A DNA stretch of 32,000 bases, taken from positions 1,440,001 through 1,472,000 of the forward strand of contig NC_007335.2 of assembly GCF_000012465.1 (NCBI RefSeq). Reading direction: 5' to 3'. Source of the DNA: Prochlorococcus marinus str. NATL2A. GTDB taxonomy: Bacteria; Cyanobacteriota; Cyanobacteriia; PCC-6307; Cyanobiaceae. How positions within the stretch are numbered: position 1 is the first letter of the stretch; each line of letters starts with the position of its first letter. The notes beneath the pieces are model-generated. The model did not search any database. It was not told the DNA's origin and saw only the letters and a program-made list of their open reading frames with translations. This document shows positions 4,134-15,564 of this stretch, one piece after another. Both the position numbers and the translations under genes were made by a program.

Positions 4134-4190
4134 GGTCCTAGCTCCTTAGAAGCGCTCAAGTCCCCGTCCTTTGGCTTGAGTCGAACTGCG
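4134..4190 (-). promoter_or_regulatory. candidate glutamine-II riboswitch (Downstream-peptide motif)
   Basis: Minus strand reads CAGUUCGACUCAAGCCAAAGGACGGGGACUUGAGCGCUUCUAAGGAGCUAGGACC. There is a CUCAAG/CUUGAG helix. The loop GGAC can pair with the GUUC just 5' of the helix (pseudoknot). GUUC...GGACGG resembles the conserved glutamine-aptamer signature as I recall it. The SD follows immediately 3'. Confidence 0.4.
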
Positions 4191-4236
4191 GTCTACGTAA
4201 GCAGATCGGACGATTGAGTAGCAAAAGCTATACACC

Positions 4237-4319: not shown

Positions 4320-6245
4320 TTACTTTGCTGACTCAGACAACTCACTTAGCTCAATCCATCTATCCTCATACTCTTGAATAGATTCAATTAGTTCTGCTAA
4401 TTGATGACTAATTTCACTAATGTCTACATCATTATCAGTGATCTTTTTTTCTAAATATATTTTCTTTTTTTCTAACATAGGTAGTCTCAGATCTAATTCT
4501 TTTAATTCTCTAGCTTCTTTAAAACTCAATCGTCTAGGATCATTTTTAGAAACTAATTTTATTTCTTGTCCACGCTTATTTTTTGAATTATTGACTATTT
4601 TGGCTCGTTCTTTTGTTTCATTGTTTCGCTCCTCTAATATTTTATGATCAAGAAATCGAGAGTAATTTCCTTCATATCTTCGCAAGTAACCGTTTTCAAA
4701 ATTAAAAATTCGATCAATAGTACGATCAAGAAAATATCTATCATGCGATACAACTACGACACAACCTTTAAAATCATCAAGAAAATCTTCTAGCACACTT
4801 AGTGTTTGTATATCTAAATCATTTGTAGGCTCATCAAGCAATAATACGTTGGGAGCTTGTATGAGCATTTTGCATAGAGCAAGTCTTCTTTTTTCTCCCC
4901 CTGAAAGTTTTTGCAGAGGACTATGTTGTTGACTGGGTGGAAAGAGGAATTTTTCTAAGAGTTGTGATGCTGTAATTTGTTTCCCTCCATGATCAATTCG
5001 TAATGCAGCCTCCTCCACAAAATCGATAACTTTGCGGTTTAAGCCACTCCCTTGATTTAAGTCATTTGTATGTTGATCTAAGTAGCCAATATGAACCGTT
5101 TCTCCAAGTTTTATTTTCCCACTTGTAGGCAATCTTTTACCCGAAATTAGATCTAAAAGAGTGGATTTACCACTGCCATTTGGACCAATAATTCCTACTC
5201 GGTCCTCTGGACTAAAGCTATAAGTAAAATCACATAAAAGATCCAAGTTATTCTCTTTATTGTTGAGCGATAGCCCTACACCTTCAGCCTCAATTGCGAT
5301 TTTTCCAATTCTTCTACTTAATGAATTCATTTCTAAATTAGCTTTGACATGACTTTTAGGTTTCGCTTGCATTTCAGCAATCCGTTGAATACGTGCTTTT
5401 TGTTTTGTACTTCTTGCTTTGGGACCCTGTCTTAACCAAGCTAATTCCTTTCTTAAAACACCCTGAAACTTTTTCTTTGTAGATGCCTCTGATTGCTCTT
5501 GTTCAACTTTTTGTTGAAGAAATTCACGATAATTGCCCGAATACTTGCGAGTTTCTCCATTGTTAATTTCGACCATCCGGTTGGTAATGCGATCAAGAAC
5601 ATATCTATCGTGAGTTATTAAGACCAGCGCACCCTTATAATGGTCTAACCAATTTTGAAGCCATTCCACTGCAGATGCATCTAGGTGGTTAGTAGGTTCA
5701 TCAAGAAGTAAGACATCTGGATTAGAGACAAGCGCAGCGGCAAGTCCCACTCTTTTGCGATAACCACCAGAAAGCTCTTTTACTGGTTTATCTAAGTCTT
5801 TTATACCTAATCTTCTTAGAACATCTTGGCATTGTTGTTCTAAATTCCATGCCTCAGCGGCATCCATAAGTTCACTCGCCTGACCTAGTTTTTTCAAAAG
5901 GTCTTCATCTTCTGGATTTTGAGCGATTTTTCTACTTAGCTGACTGAAATTAAGTAATAATTTTCTTTTTTCTCCACACCCTTCAAGAACTTCTTCCAAA
6001 ACACTTTTTTCACTGTTGTAACTTGTTTCTTGCCCAACTAAAGATATCCGCAAAGATGGTAAACATCTTCTTTCTCCTTCCATCAAAGGTTCTATTCCTG
6101 CAATGACTCTCAAAAGTGTTGACTTGCCAGATCCATTTGGACCAATCAAACCAAGTCTCTCTTTTTTATTTACATGAAGATCTAAATTTTTAAAAAGATT
6201 TTTTATTCCAAAGTCTGTAGAAGCATTAACAAGACTAATCAACAC
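4320..6245 (-). CDS. ABC-F family ATPase (two ABC cassettes, Uup/EttA-like, no TM domain)
   Basis: Two Walker A motifs (GPNGSGKST twice), two signature motifs (LSGGYRKR, LSGGEKRR), two Walker B motifs (LLLDEPTN twice), and a charged coiled-coil C-terminal tail. The start is GTG at 6245 or TTG at 6242. Confidence 0.95.
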   Translation of the reverse strand: MLISLVNASTDFGIKNLFKNLDLHVNKKERLGLIGPNGSGKSTLLRVIAGIEPLMEGERRCLPSLRISLVGQETSYNSEKSVLEEVLEGCGEKRKLLLNFSQLSRKIAQNPEDEDLLKKLGQASELMDAAEAWNLEQQCQDVLRRLGIKDLDKPVKELSGGYRKRVGLAAALVSNPDVLLLDEPTNHLDASAVEWLQNWLDHYKGALVLITHDRYVLDRITNRMVEINNGETRKYSGNYREFLQQKVEQEQSEASTKKKFQGVLRKELAWLRQGPKARSTKQKARIQRIAEMQAKPKSHVKANLEMNSLSRRIGKIAIEAEGVGLSLNNKENNLDLLCDFTYSFSPEDRVGIIGPNGSGKSTLLDLISGKRLPTSGKIKLGETVHIGYLDQHTNDLNQGSGLNRKVIDFVEEAALRIDHGGKQITASQLLEKFLFPPSQQHSPLQKLSGGEKRRLALCKMLIQAPNVLLLDEPTNDLDIQTLSVLEDFLDDFKGCVVVVSHDRYFLDRTIDRIFNFENGYLRRYEGNYSRFLDHKILEERNNETKERAKIVNNSKNKRGQEIKLVSKNDPRRLSFKEARELKELDLRLPMLEKKKIYLEKKITDNDVDISEISHQLAELIESIQEYEDRWIELSELSESAK

Positions 6246-7377: not shown

Positions 7378-7727
7378 ATGCTTGAAATCTTATTAGGAAT
7401 CCATATTTTCTATTCTCAAGCAAAATAGATAGTAAAGGAATTTGAATGTAATAAAAGTTGATTCACCTTTAATATTGAATATATACAATTCACAGGTAAA
7501 ATTTTAAAAAATTCAAAGGCATATATTAAGAATTAGTTCTAATTAAGGTTAGATACTATTCAACTACTTTTAATAGATATATCTATTCGACAACGGCGAG
7601 ATGCTTATATAGCAATCAGGGAAGAGGCTTACGTTATTCTTCTGAATATTAAAATTACTTTTAGCCGAGTTGTTGGAAGTTTACAAATTGACCTGAGAAG
7701 GTAATTTAGATTAGCTGCTTTTAGCAA

Positions 7728-7931
7728 ATGTCATTTCATCAATCTGTCGAGGAAACGATGTCAGACCTTATATGTCATATGCTTAAAAGAACCGACCATC
7801 TCAATACTGAAGATCAGTTAGCTATTGGTCAAGAATACAGAGAATGGATTAAATGCATAAAGAATAAAGACCTTGTTCCACAAAATATACTCTTTATCAA
7901 TACATCTACTTTTGGGAAAAATACTCAATAA
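7728..7931 (+). CDS. hypothetical protein
   Basis: 67 aa, ATG start, soluble, no recognisable motif. Confidence 0.35.
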   Translation: MSFHQSVEETMSDLICHMLKRTDHLNTEDQLAIGQEYREWIKCIKNKDLVPQNILFINTSTFGKNTQ

Positions 7932-8211
7932 AAAGAATCTTTGTCTTTATATTTAGAAAAGTTCCTAAACTTTTTCAGGCCTCATATTCATTAACAGGAA
8001 TTGATCTAGTTGATCTCAGTTTATTCATTTCAACAGAAAGACAAATGTTCCATCTTTAGAAATTGATTTAAACTCACACAAATACGCTAAGAAGTTTCAG
8101 CGGGCTTTATTTGTGTGATCACAACTTTCAATTAAGAAAAAGCAAAAGATTTTCTTTAATTGCCTAGAAAATACAATAAAGAAATAGGGGTGAGAATGTA
8201 ATCCATCCACA

Positions 8212-8273
8212 CATTGCAATATCGCTAAGAACCCATGGCATTAAAGGAAATCAACTACTGGCTAATGAAAAGT
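8212..8273 (+). repeat. diverged partial copy (A) of the EVE-gene promoter-proximal region plus first 13 codons
   Basis: ATGGCATTAAAGGAAATCAACTACTGGCTAATGAAAAGT (MALKEINYWLMKS, then TAA) versus ATGGCACCAAAAGAGATTAACTATTGGCTAATGAAGAGT at 15091 (MAPKEINYWLMKS). By my count 32 of 39 nt are identical, and the differences are mostly third-position. The upstream CATTGCA..TCGCT..CCC also aligns. Confidence 0.7.
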
Positions 8274-8316
8274 TAAACTTGTTTGACTGACTGATATTTG
8301 ACCGAATTGCTATTAT

Positions 8317-8355
8317 TTATCCAAACTTTATCCAAACTTTCTAGATCCTCCCATG
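8317..8355 (+). repeat. diverged partial copy (B) of the region upstream of the EVE gene
   Basis: TTATCCAAACTTTATCCAAACTTT...TCCCATG versus TTATTCAAACTTTATTCAAACATT...ATCCCATG at 15048-15093. Confidence 0.55.
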
Positions 8356-8365
8356 CCAGTAATGA

Positions 8366-8719
8366 GGGATAAAGCGAAGGTTCTTAACGGGAGAGGGACA
8401 GAGAACTGATTACAAAGCGATAGAAAAAGCTCTTGCTCCATCATTCGTACATAGCTATGACGCAGGCGTCCTTAAGTCATCTTTCCAGGATTGGCATCAA
8501 CCAATCGCTCTAATTCACGATTGATTGAAGGTTCTTCCTAACCATATGGACAAAGCAAAACAAAGGGTCAAACATGGATTTGTTCAGGTTTACAGAGGCA
8601 ATCCATTGGCTCGCTTAGCTGATGAGATGGAAGTATCATCGGAGCAATTACCACGTCTCACGCAGGGTTCTGGAGACCTCTCAGCCGTGCTTGAATCGTC
8701 TTCGTATATGTTTAATTAG
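8366..8719 (+). pseudogene. C-terminal fragment (about 117 codons) of a T7-type single-subunit RNA polymerase
   Basis: The translation is ...KAIEKALAPSFVHSYDAGVLKSSFQDWHQPIALIHD*LKVLPNHMDKAKQRVKHGFVQVY...GDLSAVLESSSYMFN. It aligns with my recollection of T7 RNAP: GIAPNFVHSQDGSHLR...FALIHDSFGTIPADAANLFKAVRETMVDTY...LRDILESDFAFA. There is an in-frame TGA at 8522-8524, and the N-terminal 85 percent of the gene is absent. G+C is visibly higher than the flanks. Confidence 0.75.
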
Positions 8720-8961
8720 AAGCTACTCTCATTGACTTGTCCTTTCTTAATCATCAATAAAGAGATTAGTTCTAAATATTTTTCTGTGATTTAATTTGAT
8801 CATTTTTATATAACTATTTATTCGCCTTTTGAAGCCTAGAACTTATACATATATGCGAAGGCATTGGGATACTTCTCTTCAAATTTTACCCGTTTTTGTA
8901 TGTTAATGTTAGGAAGCGATGTCTTTATATCTATTGGTTTTAGTTGGAATTTGAGAAGAGA

Positions 8962-9375
8962 TTACGACTTAGATAAATAGTTATTATATGATTTTTCTTC
9001 AACCAGATCTGAATTATACTTCTGATTGATTTCTTTTTTTATAGAAGCTCTCTTATCATTTTCTTTGTAAACTGATCTAGCGAGTTGAATAAATTCTTTA
9101 TCAAATTCTTGATTGCTCTCTTTTATCCTAATATTATCTTCTATTTCCCAAAGGTTATTGTTTATTTCTTTGAGATTATTAATTAAATCGATCTCAATTT
9201 CTAGATTTACATCTTGAACTATTTTTCTTAGTAGTTTTAGCTCTTTATCTATATTTTTTAGCTTTTTTCCAGTCATATGTATTTGTTTAATTTCTAGAAT
9301 CGTGATTTTATCAATTAGTTCTCCTAGAGAGACTGGAGCAAGGATAGAAGATAAGTGTTTAATCTTTGAACTCAT
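8962..9375 (-). CDS. small coiled-coil protein of unknown function, third gene of the GT operon
   Basis: 137 aa. Its ATG overlaps the methyltransferase stop (ATGA at 9375-9372). The pattern ELIDKITILEIK...NLWEIEDNIR...FIQLARSVYKENDKRASIKKEIN resembles a conserved DUF often found next to glycosyltransferases. I cannot confirm the family. Confidence 0.75.
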   Translation of the reverse strand: MSSKIKHLSSILAPVSLGELIDKITILEIKQIHMTGKKLKNIDKELKLLRKIVQDVNLEIEIDLINNLKEINNNLWEIEDNIRIKESNQEFDKEFIQLARSVYKENDKRASIKKEINQKYNSDLVEEKSYNNYLSKS

Positions 9376-9962
9376 ACTTTTCCTCCTGCTTCTTCATTAC
9401 TATTTTTAATTACTTCAAGTGACATGTCATATTGTTCAATTAAATTATTATAAATATTAGACTCTTGCTGGAGTAATCTAACATCAACATTTTTATCTGG
9501 ATGTATTCTAAACCAGTCTTCACTTGGCTTTATAACTGTTTGCTTAAGTTCAAAATTGATATCTAGATATAATCCAAGTGGACTATTAGCGGCTCCTTGC
9601 TCTACCCATAGCTTGTTTAGTCTTTGAGAAAATAATTGTAAACCTAGAGGGGTAACAACTCTCACATGAGTTGGATCATCATAGAAGAATTCATGTCTAA
9701 AATGAGGTACAATTATTTTAATTTTTGCTCCATGATTACATATTCGGTACATCTCTTTAAATATTCCAAAGTATATTTCCACGTCTTTACCTAGGTGTTC
9801 AAGAACATGTATTAATACAATTTCTGAAACTGAATTTGTCTCCCAAGGCCAAGGGAAAGATTCTAAGTCATGTTTTATATCTGGGCTCCCATATTTATCT
9901 ACATTAATATAACCTGGAAATCTTTTTTCACCGCATCCAAGATTTAATTTAAGCCCATTCAT
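9372..9962 (-). CDS. class I SAM-dependent methyltransferase
   Basis: LNLGCGEKRFPGYINVD (motif I) ... VSEIVLIHVLEHLG (motif II/III region). 196 aa. Confidence 0.85.
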   Translation of the reverse strand: MNGLKLNLGCGEKRFPGYINVDKYGSPDIKHDLESFPWPWETNSVSEIVLIHVLEHLGKDVEIYFGIFKEMYRICNHGAKIKIIVPHFRHEFFYDDPTHVRVVTPLGLQLFSQRLNKLWVEQGAANSPLGLYLDINFELKQTVIKPSEDWFRIHPDKNVDVRLLQQESNIYNNLIEQYDMSLEVIKNSNEEAGGKV

Positions 9963-10019
9963 TTGGTAAATTCTTCATGACATATTTTTTCATGATAAGC
10001 CTCTATTGATTTTTTGCTT

Positions 10020-11933
10020 TTATATTTGTTCTTCTAATTTCTTTTTTAGTTTACTTGATACTCTTTCCATAACCTCTTGCCAATTATGTCGCTCTTTTTG
10101 ACGAAATAATCTCATCGATGGGTACCAAAATGTATTCTCCCTTTCAAGTCCCCACCTCCATTCAGGAATATGTTGAAGGAGTAACCAGGTTGATTTGCCT
10201 AATCCTCCAGCTAGGTGAGCAATTGAAGTGTCAGAAGTAATAATTAAATCACAGTTTTCAATTATGGCAGCATTTTCAAGAAAATCCCAAGTCTCATCAA
10301 TTTGAGCTTGGCCGTTAACAAACTTATTTCTGAAAGAGCATTTTTCAAGTTGCTCTGAACCAAAACCTTTTTGTAGTGAAAGAAATTTAAAGTTATTGTT
10401 CCTAGCAAGAGTGGCAAAGGTTTCTAAAGCTAGTGAGCGACCTTTTAGTTCTTCCTTTTCGACATTTGGATTCCCTTGCCAGTTAATACCAATGATTGGT
10501 CTTTTTTCTTCAGAGAGTATATCCCTCCACTTCTTCGTTAGTTCATCTGTTGAAAAGATATATGGTTTGGAAATGATTGGATTTTTTTGACGTACTTGTA
10601 GATATCTAGGTAAAGATAATAGTGGTATCCATTTACCGTCTGAAATTGTCTCAGCTTGTTCTGGAGTTAATGGATTTTGATCAATCCCTGAGGCTTGGAT
10701 CAATGAATGTAGTTTTGTTTGAGCACAAAAAGAAATATTGAGTCCTTGATTTCTAAGGTAAGGAATATATCTCATATATTGAAGGGTATCTCCTAAACCT
10801 TGCTCAGTGACGACTAATAGCTTTTCTCCTTTTTGTAATTTTTTGTGCTCGATTCGTTTGAGTTTTGTAATACATTGAGTAATAGTAGGCTTCTTTTTTT
10901 TGAATCTAAATTCATAGTTTTCTAAACCATTTATATAGTCACCTTGAAGTAGTTCAACTAATGAAAGATTCCAAAATGCTTCTGCGTAATCAGGTTTAAT
11001 TTCAATCGCTTTGCGATATGACATTTCTGCTTCTTGTAAGTTTCCAAGTTCTCTCAATAAGTTTCCCAGATTGGAATGAGCCTCTGCGTAATCAGGTTTA
11101 ATTTCAATCGCTTTGCGATATGACATTTCTGCTTCTTGTAAATTTCCAAGTTCTTTCAATAAGTTTCCCAGATTGTAATGAGCCTCTGCGAAAGTAGGAT
11201 TGAGTTCAATCGCTTTGCGATATGACATTTCTGCTTCTTGTAAGTTTCCAAGTTCTCTCAATAAGTTTCCCAGATTGGAATGAGCCTTTGCGTAATCAGG
11301 TTTGATTCCAATTGCTTTGAGGTATGACAATTCTGCTTCTTTTAACTTGCCATTATCTTTCAACAAGTTTCCCAGATTGTAATGAGCCTTTGCGTAATCA
11401 GGTTTGATTTCAATTGCTTTGCGGTATGAGATTTCTGCTTCTTTTAACTTGCCAAGATCTTTTAATATATTTCCCAAATTATAATATGCTTCTGCGTAAT
11501 TAGGTTTGATTTCAATTGCTTTACGTAATGAGATTTCTGCTTCTTTTAACTTGTCAAGATCTCTTAATATATTTCCTAGATTGGAATGCATCTCTGCGAA
11601 ATCAGGTTTGATTTCAATTGCTTTTTGAGTAGATAATTCTGCTTCTTTTAATTTCCCAAGACTTTTTAAAATTATTCCATAATTAGAAAAAATTCTGTGA
11701 TCATTAAAACCTTGATTGATTAAATATTGATAATATTTTGCTGCTTCTGAAATGTTTCCTTGTGAATGAAACTTAAATGCTTGATTAATGATTTCTTCTT
11801 TAGAAGGTTTAGAAGGAGTGTTAGTGAAAATAGAAATATTCTCTTTTATTTCTTCTAAAGCAAATGAAACGGGGAATGTTTTTATATCAGTGAATTGATT
11901 CTTTCTTTGTTCTTGTTTATCTGATTTTTCCAT
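10020..11933 (-). CDS. TPR-repeat protein fused to a GT9-like (heptosyltransferase-fold) glycosyltransferase domain
   Basis: About 10 consecutive 34-aa TPR units (A..Y.KAIEIKPDYAEA..NLGN) occupy aa 55-330. The C-terminal part has LLVVTEQGLGDTLQYMRYIPYL and LIITSDTSIAHLAGGLGKSTWLLL, typical of GT9 family members. Confidence 0.9.
   Translation of the reverse strand: MEKSDKQEQRKNQFTDIKTFPVSFALEEIKENISIFTNTPSKPSKEEIINQAFKFHSQGNISEAAKYYQYLINQGFNDHRIFSNYGIILKSLGKLKEAELSTQKAIEIKPDFAEMHSNLGNILRDLDKLKEAEISLRKAIEIKPNYAEAYYNLGNILKDLGKLKEAEISYRKAIEIKPDYAKAHYNLGNLLKDNGKLKEAELSYLKAIGIKPDYAKAHSNLGNLLRELGNLQEAEMSYRKAIELNPTFAEAHYNLGNLLKELGNLQEAEMSYRKAIEIKPDYAEAHSNLGNLLRELGNLQEAEMSYRKAIEIKPDYAEAFWNLSLVELLQGDYINGLENYEFRFKKKKPTITQCITKLKRIEHKKLQKGEKLLVVTEQGLGDTLQYMRYIPYLRNQGLNISFCAQTKLHSLIQASGIDQNPLTPEQAETISDGKWIPLLSLPRYLQVRQKNPIISKPYIFSTDELTKKWRDILSEEKRPIIGINWQGNPNVEKEELKGRSLALETFATLARNNNFKFLSLQKGFGSEQLEKCSFRNKFVNGQAQIDETWDFLENAAIIENCDLIITSDTSIAHLAGGLGKSTWLLLQHIPEWRWGLERENTFWYPSMRLFRQKERHNWQEVMERVSSKLKKKLEEQI
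10982..11695. repeat. in-phase tandem 102-bp repeats (TPR units), three of them near-identical
   Basis: Units start at 10982, 11084, 11186, 11288, 11390, 11492 and 11594. Units 1 and 2 differ at 3 of 102 positions by my count. Unit 3 matches unit 1 over its last 80 nt. Confidence 0.9.
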
Positions 11934-12233
11934 AAATTTTATTCCTATAAAAGAAACAGTAAAAAACGTACGTAGTTATTTCCTTTCTAAGTGATCAAGA
12001 TCTATTAAAGATTTTTTCTTAAAGGTTTGCGACTACAACGCCTCAAATACTGCTTTAGCTATTGATTCATAACTCGCCATTATTATAGAGAAGGAAGCAT
12101 TTACACTTTCTCACTCGATTGGCATCGTGAATAAAGAAAATAGAAACTAGATATCGCAGCTGAAGCTTCAGTTGATAAGTTGGAGTTCAAATTATTTAAA
12201 ATCAATGACCAAATAACTTCCTCACTTGAATCT

Positions 12234-12461
12234 TCATGAGTTGTGAACTGCATTTTCAGTTGAATCTTTTGTGATTTGGACCTTGCCTGTCTCTAAGATA
12301 TCAGTTCCAGGAATGCCTTTAGCTACTGATCCAATCAAAGTCGTATGAGCTTCTGGATCTTTCTTTAAAGTTGTGACGCCAAGATCATTTTTTGAAATTA
12401 ATATGAAAATAATTATCCCAATAAATGTCAAGATAATTGCTAGAGCTAATGAGGATTCCAT
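12234..12461 (-). CDS. small N-terminally anchored membrane protein, hypothetical
   Basis: 75 aa, ATG start, one N-terminal TM helix. A 9-bp inverted repeat (12157-12174) lies downstream. Confidence 0.45.
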   Translation of the reverse strand: MESSLALAIILTFIGIIIFILISKNDLGVTTLKKDPEAHTTLIGSVAKGIPGTDILETGKVQITKDSTENAVHNS

Positions 12462-12689
12462 AAGCAGTTTTTTTTAGTCTTATTAAATTAAGATAAAAGT
12501 TAAAATCTATATACAAAAAGGAACTAACTAGGATCACTATTTATTCAAAGAACTTTGTAAATTTTTACTATTTTGAAGTAAAAAAATTACATGGAGGTTT
12601 GAAGTATAAAAGGAACTTCCATCTCGTAAAATAAATCGACATGCAAAACAATAATTAATAGATAATTTACAAACATTCAACTCCAATAA

Positions 12690-12974
12690 ATGCCTGAAGA
12701 TACTTTAAATGCAAGCAACCCTGAGACAGAAAATCATCATTGGTTTCCCTTCCTAAGATTTAAGAAAGAATGCGAAGCGGCAGGTAAGGAAGTCAGTGTG
12801 AATGAATGGATGAGAGAAACAGGAAAACTAAAGGAAAAGATAGCTCATGAAGAATCAGTTGCATTAGCAGCAAAAATAGCTTCTGAAAAAGAAGCAGATG
12901 CAACACAAGAAATCGAAAAAGAAGCTCTAAAGAAAAAGAAAGAAATAGAAAGTGAGCTCAATACAAAACCATAA
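12690..12974 (+). CDS. hypothetical K/E-rich protein
   Basis: 94 aa, ATG start, charged helical C-terminal half, no motif recognised. Confidence 0.4.
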   Translation: MPEDTLNASNPETENHHWFPFLRFKKECEAAGKEVSVNEWMRETGKLKEKIAHEESVALAAKIASEKEADATQEIEKEALKKKKEIESELNTKP

Positions 12975-13008
12975 ATCAGAATAATGACAACTAAATCAAA
13001 AAGTAGAG

Positions 13009-13157
13009 AATAATTACTACAACCTTGTTTGTCCAATGAGAAGTGCATGGGATCTTAATAAATTATTGCCTCTTCAAAACTTTATGTAATTGATAATGCA
13101 GGACACTCAATGAAAGAGATTGGGATGCCTAAAAAATTAATTGATTTGACGAATTAG
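13009..13157 (+). pseudogene. C-terminal remnant of a proline iminopeptidase-type alpha/beta hydrolase, with 1-nt frameshift
   Basis: Frame 1 gives NNYYNLVCPMRSAWDLNKLLPLQN. A shift at about 13081-13082 leads to frame 3, YVIDNAGHSMKEIGMPKKLIDLTN*. This matches the PIP C-terminus pattern GRYDxxCPxxxAWDLxKxxPxAxLxIVxxAGHSxxEPGIxxxLxxATDxF, including the catalytic His. Confidence 0.6.
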
Positions 13158-13275
13158 CTAGCTAATTCCTCTTCTAATCTCTAATTTTCTGTAGCTGTTA
13201 TTTGATCTAAATAATATTTATTAAATTCTACAATCATTAGCATTTCAAGGATATTTTTTAATTCCCATCATTAAT

Positions 13276-13500
13276 TTAATCTTGCTTGTTCTTTTGATTC
13301 ATATCGCTAAAAGCTTTTACTGGGAACTTTTTACCCTGTCTCCATATGGCTGTTATTATTAAAGCTATGAAGGCAATGATGGGTATAAATCTCAGGATTT
13401 CCATCGTGGAAGGTTCGACAACTAAAGCTTTAAAAGGATCACTAAGAGATACTGGAACGACTTCGTATGAATTTACTAGTTCATTTAGATCTACTTGCAT
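13276..13500 (-). CDS. small single-TM protein, hypothetical
   Basis: 74 aa, ATG start, TM helix ILRFIPIIAFIALIITAIW. Confidence 0.45.
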   Translation of the reverse strand: MQVDLNELVNSYEVVPVSLSDPFKALVVEPSTMEILRFIPIIAFIALIITAIWRQGKKFPVKAFSDMNQKNKQD

Positions 13501-13700
13501 TTTCCTAGAAAGTTATTTTTAACTCTATAGATAAATCTGCATATTTTCTTATGACTCATTCGTTTGTGATCCGTATGTATAAAATTTACCTATAAAAGTA
13601 AATAACGTTAATCCTTTTGGTGATCTAAGTTGATTCTCTTTACAAGAAAAAAATTAAACAGAATATAGTTAAAAATAAAACTACTTCGACTTCTAATCCA

Positions 13701-13814
13701 ATGTTTTTTGCATTATCGTCTTCTCAACTAGGAGTGAGTTCGTTGACTATCAATCTAATACTCATTACTTCAGTAATAGTTCTATTAGCATTGCCTACTT
13801 TATTTCTTCTTTGA
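13701..13814 (+). CDS. 37-aa hydrophobic peptide (below ORF-track cutoff)
   Basis: My own translation: MFFALSSSQLGVSSLTINLILITSVIVLLALPTLFLL. Confidence 0.25.
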   Translation: MFFALSSSQLGVSSLTINLILITSVIVLLALPTLFLL

Positions 13815-13857
13815 TCAGGCAAAGGCAAATCAGCATTTTAAAATGCCCGAAAACTAT

Positions 13858-14217
13858 TCAAGAAGGATGAAACTTTTTATATAATTGATTTTCTGATAAT
13901 TCAATCCCAAAACATACAATATTATCAAAGTCGCCATTCTTATGCATAATTGTCATGTTATCTTTAATTTCTTGGCTATCAAATATTAATCCAAATTCAC
14001 TACAATATTTAAACAATATATTCATCGCAGCCTCATGATTAGTAAGGAATTCCTCGCAAAGGTCTGACAATTTTTCCTTATTTAAACTATTTATCATTTT
14101 TTGAAAATCATTAAAATTGCTCATTTGATCTTCTAGAAGTCGAAGTAAACTATTCATAACTTTTTTATATATTCTCGTCATGACAAATATTGCTATTGCA
14201 AGTAATAAAATACTCAT
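13858..14217 (-). CDS. N-terminally anchored hypothetical protein
   Basis: 119 aa, ATG start, N-terminal TM helix then a helical soluble domain. Confidence 0.5.
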   Translation of the reverse strand: MSILLLAIAIFVMTRIYKKVMNSLLRLLEDQMSNFNDFQKMINSLNKEKLSDLCEEFLTNHEAAMNILFKYCSEFGLIFDSQEIKDNMTIMHKNGDFDNIVCFGIELSENQLYKKFHPS

Positions 14218-14446
14218 CAGAGTGTAACTTTATCAAGAACCTAGTCACCAATACAACTCTCATCTATGGCTTGAATCCAAAGTCAAGCTAAAAAACTTTT
14301 TATTTATACAGAGTATTAAAAGAAATGAATTCATGTTTTTCTAGCAAGTATCAATTAAGACTAAGTTGTGTATATATTAATAGTATGTATTTCTAGGAAA
14401 AGAAAGTAAAATTTATTAATAATAAAATTAAACATTAACTATCAAT

Positions 14447-14575
14447 ATGAATAAAGATCTAAGTCAAATGACAATTGAAAATGATGTTACCCAAGCTAAT
14501 TATTCAACACTATTCAAAGGGATTTGGACAGGTATTTTAATCTCCTTAATAGTGCATCAGTTTATCAATCATTAA
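14447..14575 (+). CDS. 42-aa peptide with C-terminal TM helix (below ORF-track cutoff)
   Basis: My own translation: MNKDLSQMTIENDVTQANYSTLFKGIWTGILISLIVHQFINH. Confidence 0.25.
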   Translation: MNKDLSQMTIENDVTQANYSTLFKGIWTGILISLIVHQFINH

Positions 14576-14610
14576 ATCCTTTAATTCTATTATGCGATAT
14601 ATATCAGAAT

Positions 14611-14886
14611 TTAATCACCAAATCGATAATGCTTACGAACAGCCTTATGAACATCCCATCTACAGTCCATTCCTGCTGGGAAGACAACTAAGTCACCTGC
14701 GCCAAACTTCACAGGTTCTCCTCCATCAGGAGTCACAGTCACTTCGCCCGCAAGTAATAAGCAAGTCTCTTGATCTTCATAAGTCCAGTTAAAAGAACTT
14801 ACATCACAAGTCCATATCGGCCAATTTTTGGTTACTAATTCCTGAATCGTAGTTTCAGTACAAGGAGAAGTAACTAATATCGACAC
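14611..14886 (-). CDS. cupin domain protein (DUF861 / cupin_3 type)
   Basis: WPIWTCDVSSFNWTYEDQETCLLLAGEVTVTPDGGEPVKFGAGDLVVFPAGMDCRWDVHKAVRKHY matches the cupin_3 pattern. GTG start at 14886. Confidence 0.85.
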   Translation of the reverse strand: MSILVTSPCTETTIQELVTKNWPIWTCDVSSFNWTYEDQETCLLLAGEVTVTPDGGEPVKFGAGDLVVFPAGMDCRWDVHKAVRKHYRFGD

Positions 14887-15047
14887 GGAATAGTAGACAT
14901 AGAGACTTCTTTATAGCTGATTATGAAAGCAGTTGTATTTGCTTCTTCAATTTTCGACAGAATTCTTTGAAGTCGAATTGCAAACAGGGCTAGAACATAA
15001 TCTCCCCATAGGGGATAATGTTTAGAGCTAATCAAAAAGATCAAAAG

Positions 15048-15129
15048 TTATTCAAACTTTATTCAAACATTGCATCTTCGCTGACATCCCATGGCACCAA
15101 AAGAGATTAACTATTGGCTAATGAAGAGT
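15048..15129 (+). repeat. intact counterpart of repeats A and B (EVE gene upstream region plus first 13 codons)
   Basis: See features 8212..8273 and 8317..8355. Includes the 11-nt-periodic direct repeat TTATTCAAACT / TTATTCAAACA. Confidence 0.7.
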
Positions 15130-15564
15130 GAGCCAGATGCTTACAGTATTAAAGATTTAGAAAAAGAAGAAGAAACTCTCTGGGATGGAATTCGAAATTA
15201 TCAGGCTAGAAACTTTATGAGGTCAATGGAAATTGGTGATCAAGCTTTTTTTTATCATTCGAATACTAAACCACCTGGAATAGTTGGTCTGATGGAAATT
15301 ATTGAAAAAAACTTAATCGACCCTTTTCAGTTTGATGAAAGCTCAAAGTATTTTGACAAAAAATCAAAAAGAGATAACCCTCGTTGGGATTGCGTGAAAA
15401 CTAAATATATCTGTGAATTTAAAAGTATGATTACTTTAAAGGACCTATCTGAAACTTATACGTCTGAAGAACTCACTCTAGTTCGTAAAGGGAACAGGCT
15501 ATCAATTATGCCAATTAATAAAGATATCGCTTTAGAGCTTCTCAAAAAGCTCAAGAAAAATTAA
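15091..15564 (+). CDS. EVE domain (PUA-like) protein
   Basis: YWLMKSEPDAYSIKDLEKEEETLWDGIRNYQARNFMRSMEIGDQAFFYHSN is the typical EVE/DUF55 N-terminus. 157 aa. Confidence 0.9.
   Translation: MAPKEINYWLMKSEPDAYSIKDLEKEEETLWDGIRNYQARNFMRSMEIGDQAFFYHSNTKPPGIVGLMEIIEKNLIDPFQFDESSKYFDKKSKRDNPRWDCVKTKYICEFKSMITLKDLSETYTSEELTLVRKGNRLSIMPINKDIALELLKKLKKN

Follow-up and report, generated by a model that had tools for sequence, protein, structure and literature searches.

The question raised by the locus examined here is how the tail end of a T7-type single-subunit RNA polymerase (RNAP) came to lie in a cellular chromosome. The stretch of DNA analysed, hereinafter the window, consists of 32,000 nucleotides (nt) of the Prochlorococcus marinus str. 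NATL2A chromosome (NC_007335.2, positions 1,440,001 to 1,472,000). In the original prediction, the fragment was placed at window positions 8366-8719, beside an att-like repeat, and was put forward as possible physical evidence of lysogeny by a T7-like podovirus, with an RNAP-bearing satellite mentioned as a side option. The comparisons described below lead to another source. Window 8353-8780 is very probably the scar of a site-specific integrative element the core of which consisted of a large tyrosine integrase followed by a single-subunit RNAP.

The identification of the polymerase itself holds. The translation of 8366-8719 (plus strand) is as first given, with an in-frame TGA (8522-8524) right behind ALIHD; the peptide matches the Pfam family RNA_pol (PF00940) with 36.7 bits (E 2.9e-9; gathering score 22) and is collinear with T7 RNAP residues 767-878, the APNFVHSQD and ALIHD blocks included. 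The proposed right end at 8719 is correct, but RNAP homology proper begins at 8390 rather than at 8366, and 8353-8400 are integrase codons. The RNAP pseudogene accordingly occupies 8390-8719 (plus strand) and comprises the last ~110 codons, equivalent to residues 707-814 of the enzyme of Prochlorococcus MIT 1012 and to approximately 775-883 of T7 RNAP. Because motifs A and B are deleted and the TGA directly follows the retained His-Asp of motif C, the window copy is a pseudogene of the single-subunit RNAP family, not an enzyme. In place of the TGA, intact relatives have a cysteine codon (TGT or TGC), so that one substitution accounts for the stop. Eight independently assembled contigs, which come from an NCBI genome, ENA metagenomes and sequencing runs assembled in Logan, agree in every one of the 367 nt between the integrase ATG and the RNAP stop codon, the TGA and the point of fusion among them; therefore neither the TGA nor the fragment as a whole is a sequencing error. 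Over 20.5 kb, the window differs from GCA_047285275.1 by a single mismatch. The higher G+C content noted originally is also borne out, at 44.2% for 8390-8719 against 29.4% and 27.7% in the left (7400-8170) and right (8780-9400) flanks.

A tblastn search with full-length protein queries detected no further pieces of RNAP or integrase in the window, and no Rfam family matches in or near the stub. Past the stop codon, there is a 3' untranslated tail (8720-8780, plus strand) that is common to the stubs of one RNAP sublineage: homology with the stubs at loci L001, L002/L007, L003 and L011 (the loci compared here are numbered with the prefix L) stops at window 8780-8787. These ~60 conserved nucleotides were considered as a universal att site, promoter or terminator and rejected because they are confined to that one sublineage and are absent from intact copies. 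The stub itself is functionless, ordinary dead DNA.

The integrase is represented by its first 16 codons (8353-8400, plus strand; MPVMRDKAKVLNGRGT), all 16 residues of which coincide with the N-terminal residues of the L014 integrase (526 aa). At the DNA level, window 8244-8401 is 90.5% identical to L014 8027-8183, that is, 108 nt upstream of the L014 integrase and its first 49 nt. Locus L014 shares its left flank with the window and carries an intact integrase and an intact RNAP at the same chromosomal position. The point of fusion lies in a 12-nt microhomology, GGAGAGGGACAG (8390-8401, plus strand), that falls within integrase codons 13-16 and at RNAP codon ~705, the RNAP piece being entered at about codon 707: at this point, the L014 integrase reads GGAGAGGAACAG and the RNAP relatives read GGCGAAGGACAG. 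Because the sequence switches from integrase to RNAP within a stretch common to both genes, the junction is recognizable as the product of a microhomology-mediated internal deletion by which nearly all of both genes was lost. The remnants are out of frame with each other; the integrase frame enters the RNAP piece out of frame and terminates after two more codons.

The integration target is a gene for an EVE domain protein that is encoded, intact, at 15091-15564 (plus strand; Pfam EVE, 180 bits). It belongs to the core genes, and its right-hand neighbours do not differ among the strains examined. The EVE leader and first 13 codons (~15060-15128) are 78% identical (54/69) to window ~8204-8272, left of the stub, with a local score of 39 compared to a shuffle mean of 14.6 and maximum of 18. 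This relationship emerged from a short-word BLAST search combined with the EVE annotation. The host (B) arm of attL (8175-8252, plus strand) corresponds to the original EVE upstream region and start and matches the left arm of the vacant L032 site at 65 of 79 positions (82%); the copy of the EVE 5' end in attL encodes the pseudo-start open reading frame (ORF) MALKEINYWLMKS, closed by a stop codon, at 8235-8276 (plus strand). The attL core together with the start of the P' arm (8253-8276, plus strand; AACTACTGGCTAATGAAAAGTTAA) is 24 nt long, is 100% identical to positions 2078-2101 of the attP in L026, and includes TGGCTAATGAA as the candidate crossover core. Beyond TGGCTAATGAARAGT (...GAARAGT) on the right, attB and attR continue into GAGCCAGATGC, the EVE codons, and attP and attL continue into TAA. 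At the other end of the island, attR (15038-15128, plus strand) consists of the P arm with the 11-mers TATTCAAACTT and TATTCAAACAT (15049-15070), the element-derived leader, the core and the real EVE start; it is 71.6% identical to attP (L026 2007-2098) over 95 nt.

The att-like repeat B of the original prediction corresponds to the tandem 11-mers TATCCAAACTT (8318-8339, plus strand) in the P' arm and integrase leader, and the same tandem pair precedes the intact integrase of L014 (8101-8122). The stub is located beside a genuine att site, as first proposed; repeat B, however, is only a pair of 11-mers in the integrase leader, and the att duplication is that of the EVE 5' end. The existence in the window of a second copy of repeat B, as a simple long direct repeat, was rejected, given that repeat and pattern searches returned only the local 11-nt tandem and a copy with one mismatch at 15048. 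The 11-mers in attR are probably what had been called repeat A. In L026, attP lies just upstream of the integrase and consists of two copies of TACTCAAACTT, a mimic of the EVE leader with the pseudo-start MTDCNYWLMKS (followed by a stop), and four more copies of the 11-mer. Such 11-mers are present in attP and in the attR sites of the window and of L030, and are absent from the attB sites of L031 and L032. Their sequence varies by lineage, namely TATCCAAAC in the window and L014, TACTCAAAC in L026 and TACTCTAAC beside the L030 integrase. Such variation between element lineages fits arm-type binding sites of the integrase, and the 11-mers can be considered putative sites of this kind.

Two unoccupied sites complete the comparison. 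In L031, the EVE gene directly follows a gene for an amino-acid ABC transporter and, in L032, a NadB-like gene; neither integrase, nor RNAP, nor tandem 11-mers were found beside EVE in either locus. In a five-way alignment of the window attL and attR, the L026 attP and the L031 and L032 attB sites, attL and attR are reciprocal chimeras of attP and attB. Because this is the pattern of site-specific integration, the window can be recognized to hold attL (~8175-8340) and attR (~15038-15128) around an island of ~6.9 kb. The EVE leader and first ~11 codons are re-supplied by element DNA, so that the element replaces the leader of its target and probably the promoter as well. The same EVE site in L030 is occupied by a photolyase-bearing island that is headed by a 72%-identical integrase and lacks an RNAP remnant. 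To the left of that integrase (L030 ~515-700), two TATCCAAAC 11-mers, the core and two TACTCTAAC 11-mers follow one another, which looks like the junction of two different elements inserted in tandem.

The comparisons lead to the following succession of events. In the lineage of the window, the attP of an element recombined with the 5' end of EVE, yielding attL with the old EVE start, the P' arm and the integrase, and attR with the P arm, the new leader and an intact EVE. Later, a deletion between the 12-nt microhomologies took out the integrase from codon 17 on, together with RNAP codons 1 to ~706, and a TGY-to-TGA change in the RNAP tail followed. Comparison of the sequences thus shows that an element integrated at the EVE 5' end, that its DNA replaced the leader and first ~11 codons, that the internal deletion and the nonsense mutation came afterwards, and that the module recurs at other loci.

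Intact versions of the module are found at several of these other loci. A tyrosine integrase of 460-530 aa is encoded upstream of RNAP, on the same strand, in L004 (MIT 1012), L005, L009, L013, L014, L026 and L027; the two genes directly adjoin each other everywhere but in L004, in which they are separated by ~4.7 kb that contains other genes. The integrase of L004 scores above the Pfam cut-off, and these integrases match PHROG integrase families strongly. A conserved protein of 270-295 aa (~285 aa) with no assigned function is encoded 3' of RNAP in L005, L009, L026 and L029, and small co-directional ORFs lie further downstream in L026, L027 and L029. Downstream cargo includes type I restriction-modification genes in MIT 1012, an Mrr-helicase and a PD-(D/E)XK protein in Synechococcus A18-46.1, and an HNH endonuclease in L014. 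Scans with Pfam and PHROGs, which for the chromosomal copies covered ~10 kb downstream of the intact RNAP, detected no single-strand-binding protein, primase-helicase, DNA polymerase, portal, capsid or terminase in L004, L005, L006, L009, L013, L014 or the 10.3-kb circular form described below. The elements are inserted right after rpsD in Prochlorococcus MIT 1012 (L004 1186-3310) and Synechococcus A18-46.1 (L013 7934-9989) and right after ychF in AG-363-O16 (L009); the flanks examined contain no significant att direct repeat for these rpsD- and ychF-linked elements. In L005, a 17-nt exact direct repeat, ATGCACTTTCAGGACAT, is located 105 nt upstream of the integrase (4583-4599) and again 10.65 kb downstream (15236-15252), and may bound that element.

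The polymerases of these elements form a distinct group. Full-length RNAPs of 811-818 aa were found by genome scan in the Prochlorococcus chromosomes of MIT 1012 (a complete genome), AG-404-B19, AG-402-L23 and AG-363-O16, and further full-length members are encoded in one more Prochlorococcus single-cell genome and in Synechococcus A18-46.1. The intact MIT 1012 enzyme matches PF00940 with 151 bits. Residues D523, K592, Y600 and H747-D748, which by alignment position we take to be the counterparts of T7 D537, K631, Y639 and H811-D812 in the T7 catalytic numbering (the Asp of motif A, the Lys and Tyr of motif B and the His-Asp of motif C, respectively), are invariant in 24 full-length members of the clade; therefore the intact copies look like active enzymes. 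An exhaustive HMMER search of 1.84 billion representative proteins yielded ~17 full-length clusters with 34-50% identity and more than 400 bits, below which the scores fall to 279 bits or less for the mass of T7-like enzymes (5,316 matches in total). The stub is 60-89% identical to members of this chromosomal clade, including 75% to the C-terminus of the MIT 1012 RNAP and 83-89% to other stubs. Among 5.8 billion proteins searched, 34 relatives of the stub with 65-89% identity were found, all of them short (64-185 aa) and a few of them in Prochlorococcus genomes.

An apparently free form of the element is represented by two independent metagenome assemblies. The contig from a Tara sample (L026; MEGAHIT, k=127) has an exact terminal repeat of 127 bp and that from a JGI metagenome (L027) an exact terminal repeat of 77 bp; both reduce to 10,327 bp, with 99.8% mutual identity, and L029 is a permuted relative. 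Terminal repeats of this kind are the usual signature of a circular molecule, a tandem array being the less likely explanation. The circle encodes the integrase (530 aa), a 115-aa ORF, RNAP (812 aa), a 287-aa protein, approximately 8 small ORFs and, on the reverse strand, a 247-aa ORF. A motif, CTCACTATCGTTCG, that resembles the T7 promoter core occurs in L026 at 527, 588, 3905 and 4051, always on the plus strand, in noncoding DNA and with no more than 2 mismatches; two of its copies lie within a 146-bp duplication between integrase and RNAP. When up to 3 mismatches are allowed, there are 5 matches compared to 0.85 expected. The motif is not conserved in the other element lineages and, as a candidate promoter for the RNAP, is only a lead.

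Two alternative sources of the window copy involve phages. That the scar is what remains of a T7-like, P-SSP7-like cyanopodovirus prophage that lost everything but the RNAP tail, as originally proposed, is highly improbable. Cyanopodoviruses of the Autographiviridae (P-SSP7, Syn5 and S-CBP42) do encode an RNAP that belongs to PF00940 as well, next to a tyrosine integrase, in P-SSP7 with the integrase immediately upstream, in the gene order seen here, and their RNAPs are the nearest to the island clade among the reference enzymes in a neighbour-joining tree. In that same tree, however, the island RNAPs form one clade apart from the phage enzymes, so that the phylogenetic placement suggested as a check puts the RNAP of the stub outside the cyanopodovirus clade. 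Identity to P-SSP7, Syn5 and S-CBP42 is only 31-34% for the stub, with ~31% for its best phage matches (S-CBP42 and Syn5), and 25-28% for full-length clade members (23% to T7). The island integrases, at 460-530 aa, are about twice the size of those of the phages (260-290 aa; 290 in P-SSP7) and show no detectable similarity to them, the phage genomes are 45 kb in length as opposed to the 10-kb elements, and no T7-like replication or virion genes were detected by the Pfam and PHROG scans of the elements. Scans of viral contigs produced a single relative, in IMG/VR (L025), with an RNAP of 40% identity. An integrase-bearing, RNAP-encoding element was thus once integrated at this locus, as the lysogeny hypothesis implied, but its derivation from a P-SSP7-like or other T7-like cyanopodovirus is not supported, and the RNAP-bearing satellite mentioned in passing comes nearer to the truth. 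Under the satellite hypothesis, the scar would derive from a ~10-kb parasite of cyanopodoviruses of the PICI, VEIME or PICI-like tycheposon type, the RNAP of which reads helper promoters or the genes of the satellite itself during infection. The elements resemble satellites in their size of 10.3 kb, in the combination of an integrase with a lambda-type attP, in their circular form and in the series of small ORFs that point in one direction, and their RNAP is closest to the cyanopodovirus enzymes. The IMG/VR relative adds to this: in L025, which has a G+C content of 50%, the gene after RNAP (4762-5430) encodes an acidic repeat protein that matches PHROG head-assembly/scaffolding families (E 1e-16). 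This protein was discarded as a satellite sign since it bears no relation to the ~285-aa protein that is conserved in the Prochlorococcus elements, and neither a terminase small subunit, nor a capsid, nor a capsid-size-redirection gene was detected in the latter. A satellite origin appears unlikely, although considerably less so than a prophage. It concerns the lifestyle of the parent element and is compatible with interpretation of the stub as the scar of an integrase-RNAP element.

A third alternative is that the stub persists as a domesticated small gene with a host function, such as the 57-64-aa ORF at 8525/8546-8719. A product of 57 aa is predicted here by gene callers, at least 8 assemblies share the identical sequence, for which at least 20 contigs are listed, and RNAP C-terminal pieces recur in several genomes; the search beyond the window for further pieces, which had been proposed at the outset, indeed recovered decayed as well as intact copies in other Prochlorococcus and Synechococcus genomes. 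The decayed copies, however, differ from one another. In L003 (P0034), an integrase fragment is joined to the last 26 RNAP residues, with breakpoints that differ from those of the window fusion; the L002 stub contains a frameshift, that of L001 contains frameshifts and stops, and L011 has an internal deletion. A near full-length RNAP with one frameshift and one stop in L008 (2791-5219) stands near the beginning of the decay series, the end of which is represented by stubs such as that in the window. Every other partial copy is broken differently and no common ORF survives, which argues against domestication. The window ORF represents only the extreme C-terminus of the polymerase, and the assemblies that share it come from near-identical strains (1 mismatch in 20.5 kb), so that their identity is uninformative on selection. 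Domestication is highly improbable.

Several observations weigh against the origin of the scar from an integrase-RNAP element, or against parts of this scenario. The genes between the stub and attR share no similarity with those of the circular element, and their arrival with it, as opposed to later addition or exchange, is unproven; these ~6.3 kb may be cargo or a later accretion. The circularity rests on the terminal repeats of assemblies, and a tandem array would produce the same repeats. The L014 integrase falls just short of the Pfam gathering cut-off (25.5 vs 27.1). The remnant also has a mosaic look, with an integrase leader 90% identical to that of L014 and an RNAP tail only 61% identical to the L014 protein and 75% to that of MIT 1012. 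Finally, in a sister strain (L010), the flank is 92% identical and the RNAP breakpoint is the same, with an extra deletion over window 8172-8397, but the stub itself is only 75% identical, which could reflect rapid drift of the pseudogene, recombination, or a separate deletion event at this microhomology.

With respect to the living relatives of the scar, the RNAP is predicted to transcribe the co-directional genes of the element itself. It might additionally prime replication of the circle, a possibility suggested by the lack of a recognizable primase, helicase, Rep or DNA polymerase and by analogy with the T7 and mitochondrial RNAPs. A broader hypothesis, which we consider possible but somewhat less than even, is that these elements constitute an undescribed class in picocyanobacteria: circles of ~10 kb with a large tyrosine integrase, a T7-type RNAP and the ~285-aa protein, and no recognizable replication or packaging genes, that would transcribe themselves independently of the host, perhaps prime their own replication or use a podovirus helper, insert at the 5' ends of conserved genes, with replacement of the leaders, and act as seeds of genomic islands in both Prochlorococcus and marine Synechococcus.

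The window fragment is a degraded integrative element in a Prochlorococcus island and, in this respect, is of a known general kind. Genomic islands of Prochlorococcus have been attributed to tycheposons, which target tRNA genes, and to 'cryptic' integrase elements without other recognizable genes; both employ tyrosine recombinases, are ~10 kb in size, and seed or enlarge the islands (bioRxiv 10.1101/2020.12.28.424599). Tycheposons integrate at seven tRNA/tmRNA genes, where part of a tRNA forms the att repeat, carry variable cargo, form excised circles and leave behind degraded integrases and att copies; 'non-tRNA-associated' recombinases are mentioned within the Prochlorococcus-specific clade of tyrosine recombinases to which those of tycheposons belong (bioRxiv 10.1101/2020.12.28.424599). 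The scar in the window is precisely such a 'remnant of degenerated elements' as that work describes, in which, including three supplementary files, a single-subunit RNAP is unmentioned (bioRxiv 10.1101/2020.12.28.424599). Unlike tycheposons, the elements described here encode a single-subunit RNAP, the target is the EVE 5' end in the window, with relatives located after rpsD or ychF, there are no tRNA genes in the 32-kb window, and the hallmark primase, helicase and polymerase genes were not detected in the 10.3-kb circle. The L001 stub is located between tRNA-Ala(ggc) (L001 3596-3670) and tRNA-Arg(tct) (L001 12504-12577), both of which are reported tycheposon targets; therefore this TPR-rich island is of a different origin from the one at the EVE site.

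The att arrangement is reminiscent of lambda-type elements, in which the attP core is flanked by repeated sites on both arms and attL and attR have the structures B-O-P' and P-O-B', respectively, and in particular of those lambda-type elements that carry a replacement copy in attP, such that the target gene is kept intact by element-supplied sequence. The distinction is that, here, the target is the 5' end of a protein-coding gene (the leader and ~11 codons) rather than the 3' end of a tRNA gene, and that the 11-mer arm sites are putative. Small selfish replicons with their own T7-type RNAP are also known outside phages, linear mitochondrial plasmids among them. The latter are linear, protein-primed replicons of eukaryotic organelles that encode a family B DNA polymerase, in contrast to the circular, integrase-bearing, bacterial elements discussed here. 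We found no paper on an RNAP-bearing integrative element in picocyanobacteria (the tycheposon work was compared in its preprint form), and the parent element, which is cellular, circularizes, carries an integrase and its own T7-type RNAP and targets the 5' end of a protein-coding gene, is apparently undescribed.

Prochlorococcus is usually described as devoid of plasmids and, one partial exception aside, of prophages. Against this background, the scar leads to a coherent family of elements that accounts for some of the 'cryptic' integrase elements. This family has its own RNAP, its attP is defined, a protein-coding gene is its target, and its circular form is seen in two metagenome assemblies from the ocean. 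A private T7-type polymerase in a cellular element raises the possibility of host-independent transcription of cargo, and restriction-modification and other defence genes are located downstream in two genomes. The family also supplies a divergent clade of single-subunit RNAPs, the promoter specificity of which is a new question, along with those of RNAP-primed replication and of kinship with the cyanopodoviruses that share the integrase-RNAP pair.

The interior of the island (8781-15037; 31% G+C) encodes a DUF6165 protein, a 196-aa ORF, a 637-aa TPR protein, small ORFs and a cupin. The TPR gene contains seven tandem repeats of 102 nt, each corresponding to a 34-aa TPR unit, at 10864-11775 (minus strand). 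Paralogous TPR genes immediately follow the RNAP stubs in L001, L003 and L011, the L001 paralogue carrying a glycosyltransferase-41 domain, and it seems that the RNAP tail and a convergent TPR gene travel together. To the left of attL, a 67-aa ORF without a family match (7728-7931, plus strand) is 75.6% identical at the DNA level to an ORF of MIT 1012 (L004 4445-4648) that lies between the 514-aa integrase and an integrase fragment; the window ORF may likewise derive from an element, or may indicate that insertions are layered on this side of the island. Still further to the left, a Glutamine-II riboswitch aptamer (Rfam RF01704, 56.8 bits; gathering score 33) is present at 4155-4215 (minus strand), between a gene for an ABC-F ATPase (4320-6245, minus strand) and the small ORFs on its left.

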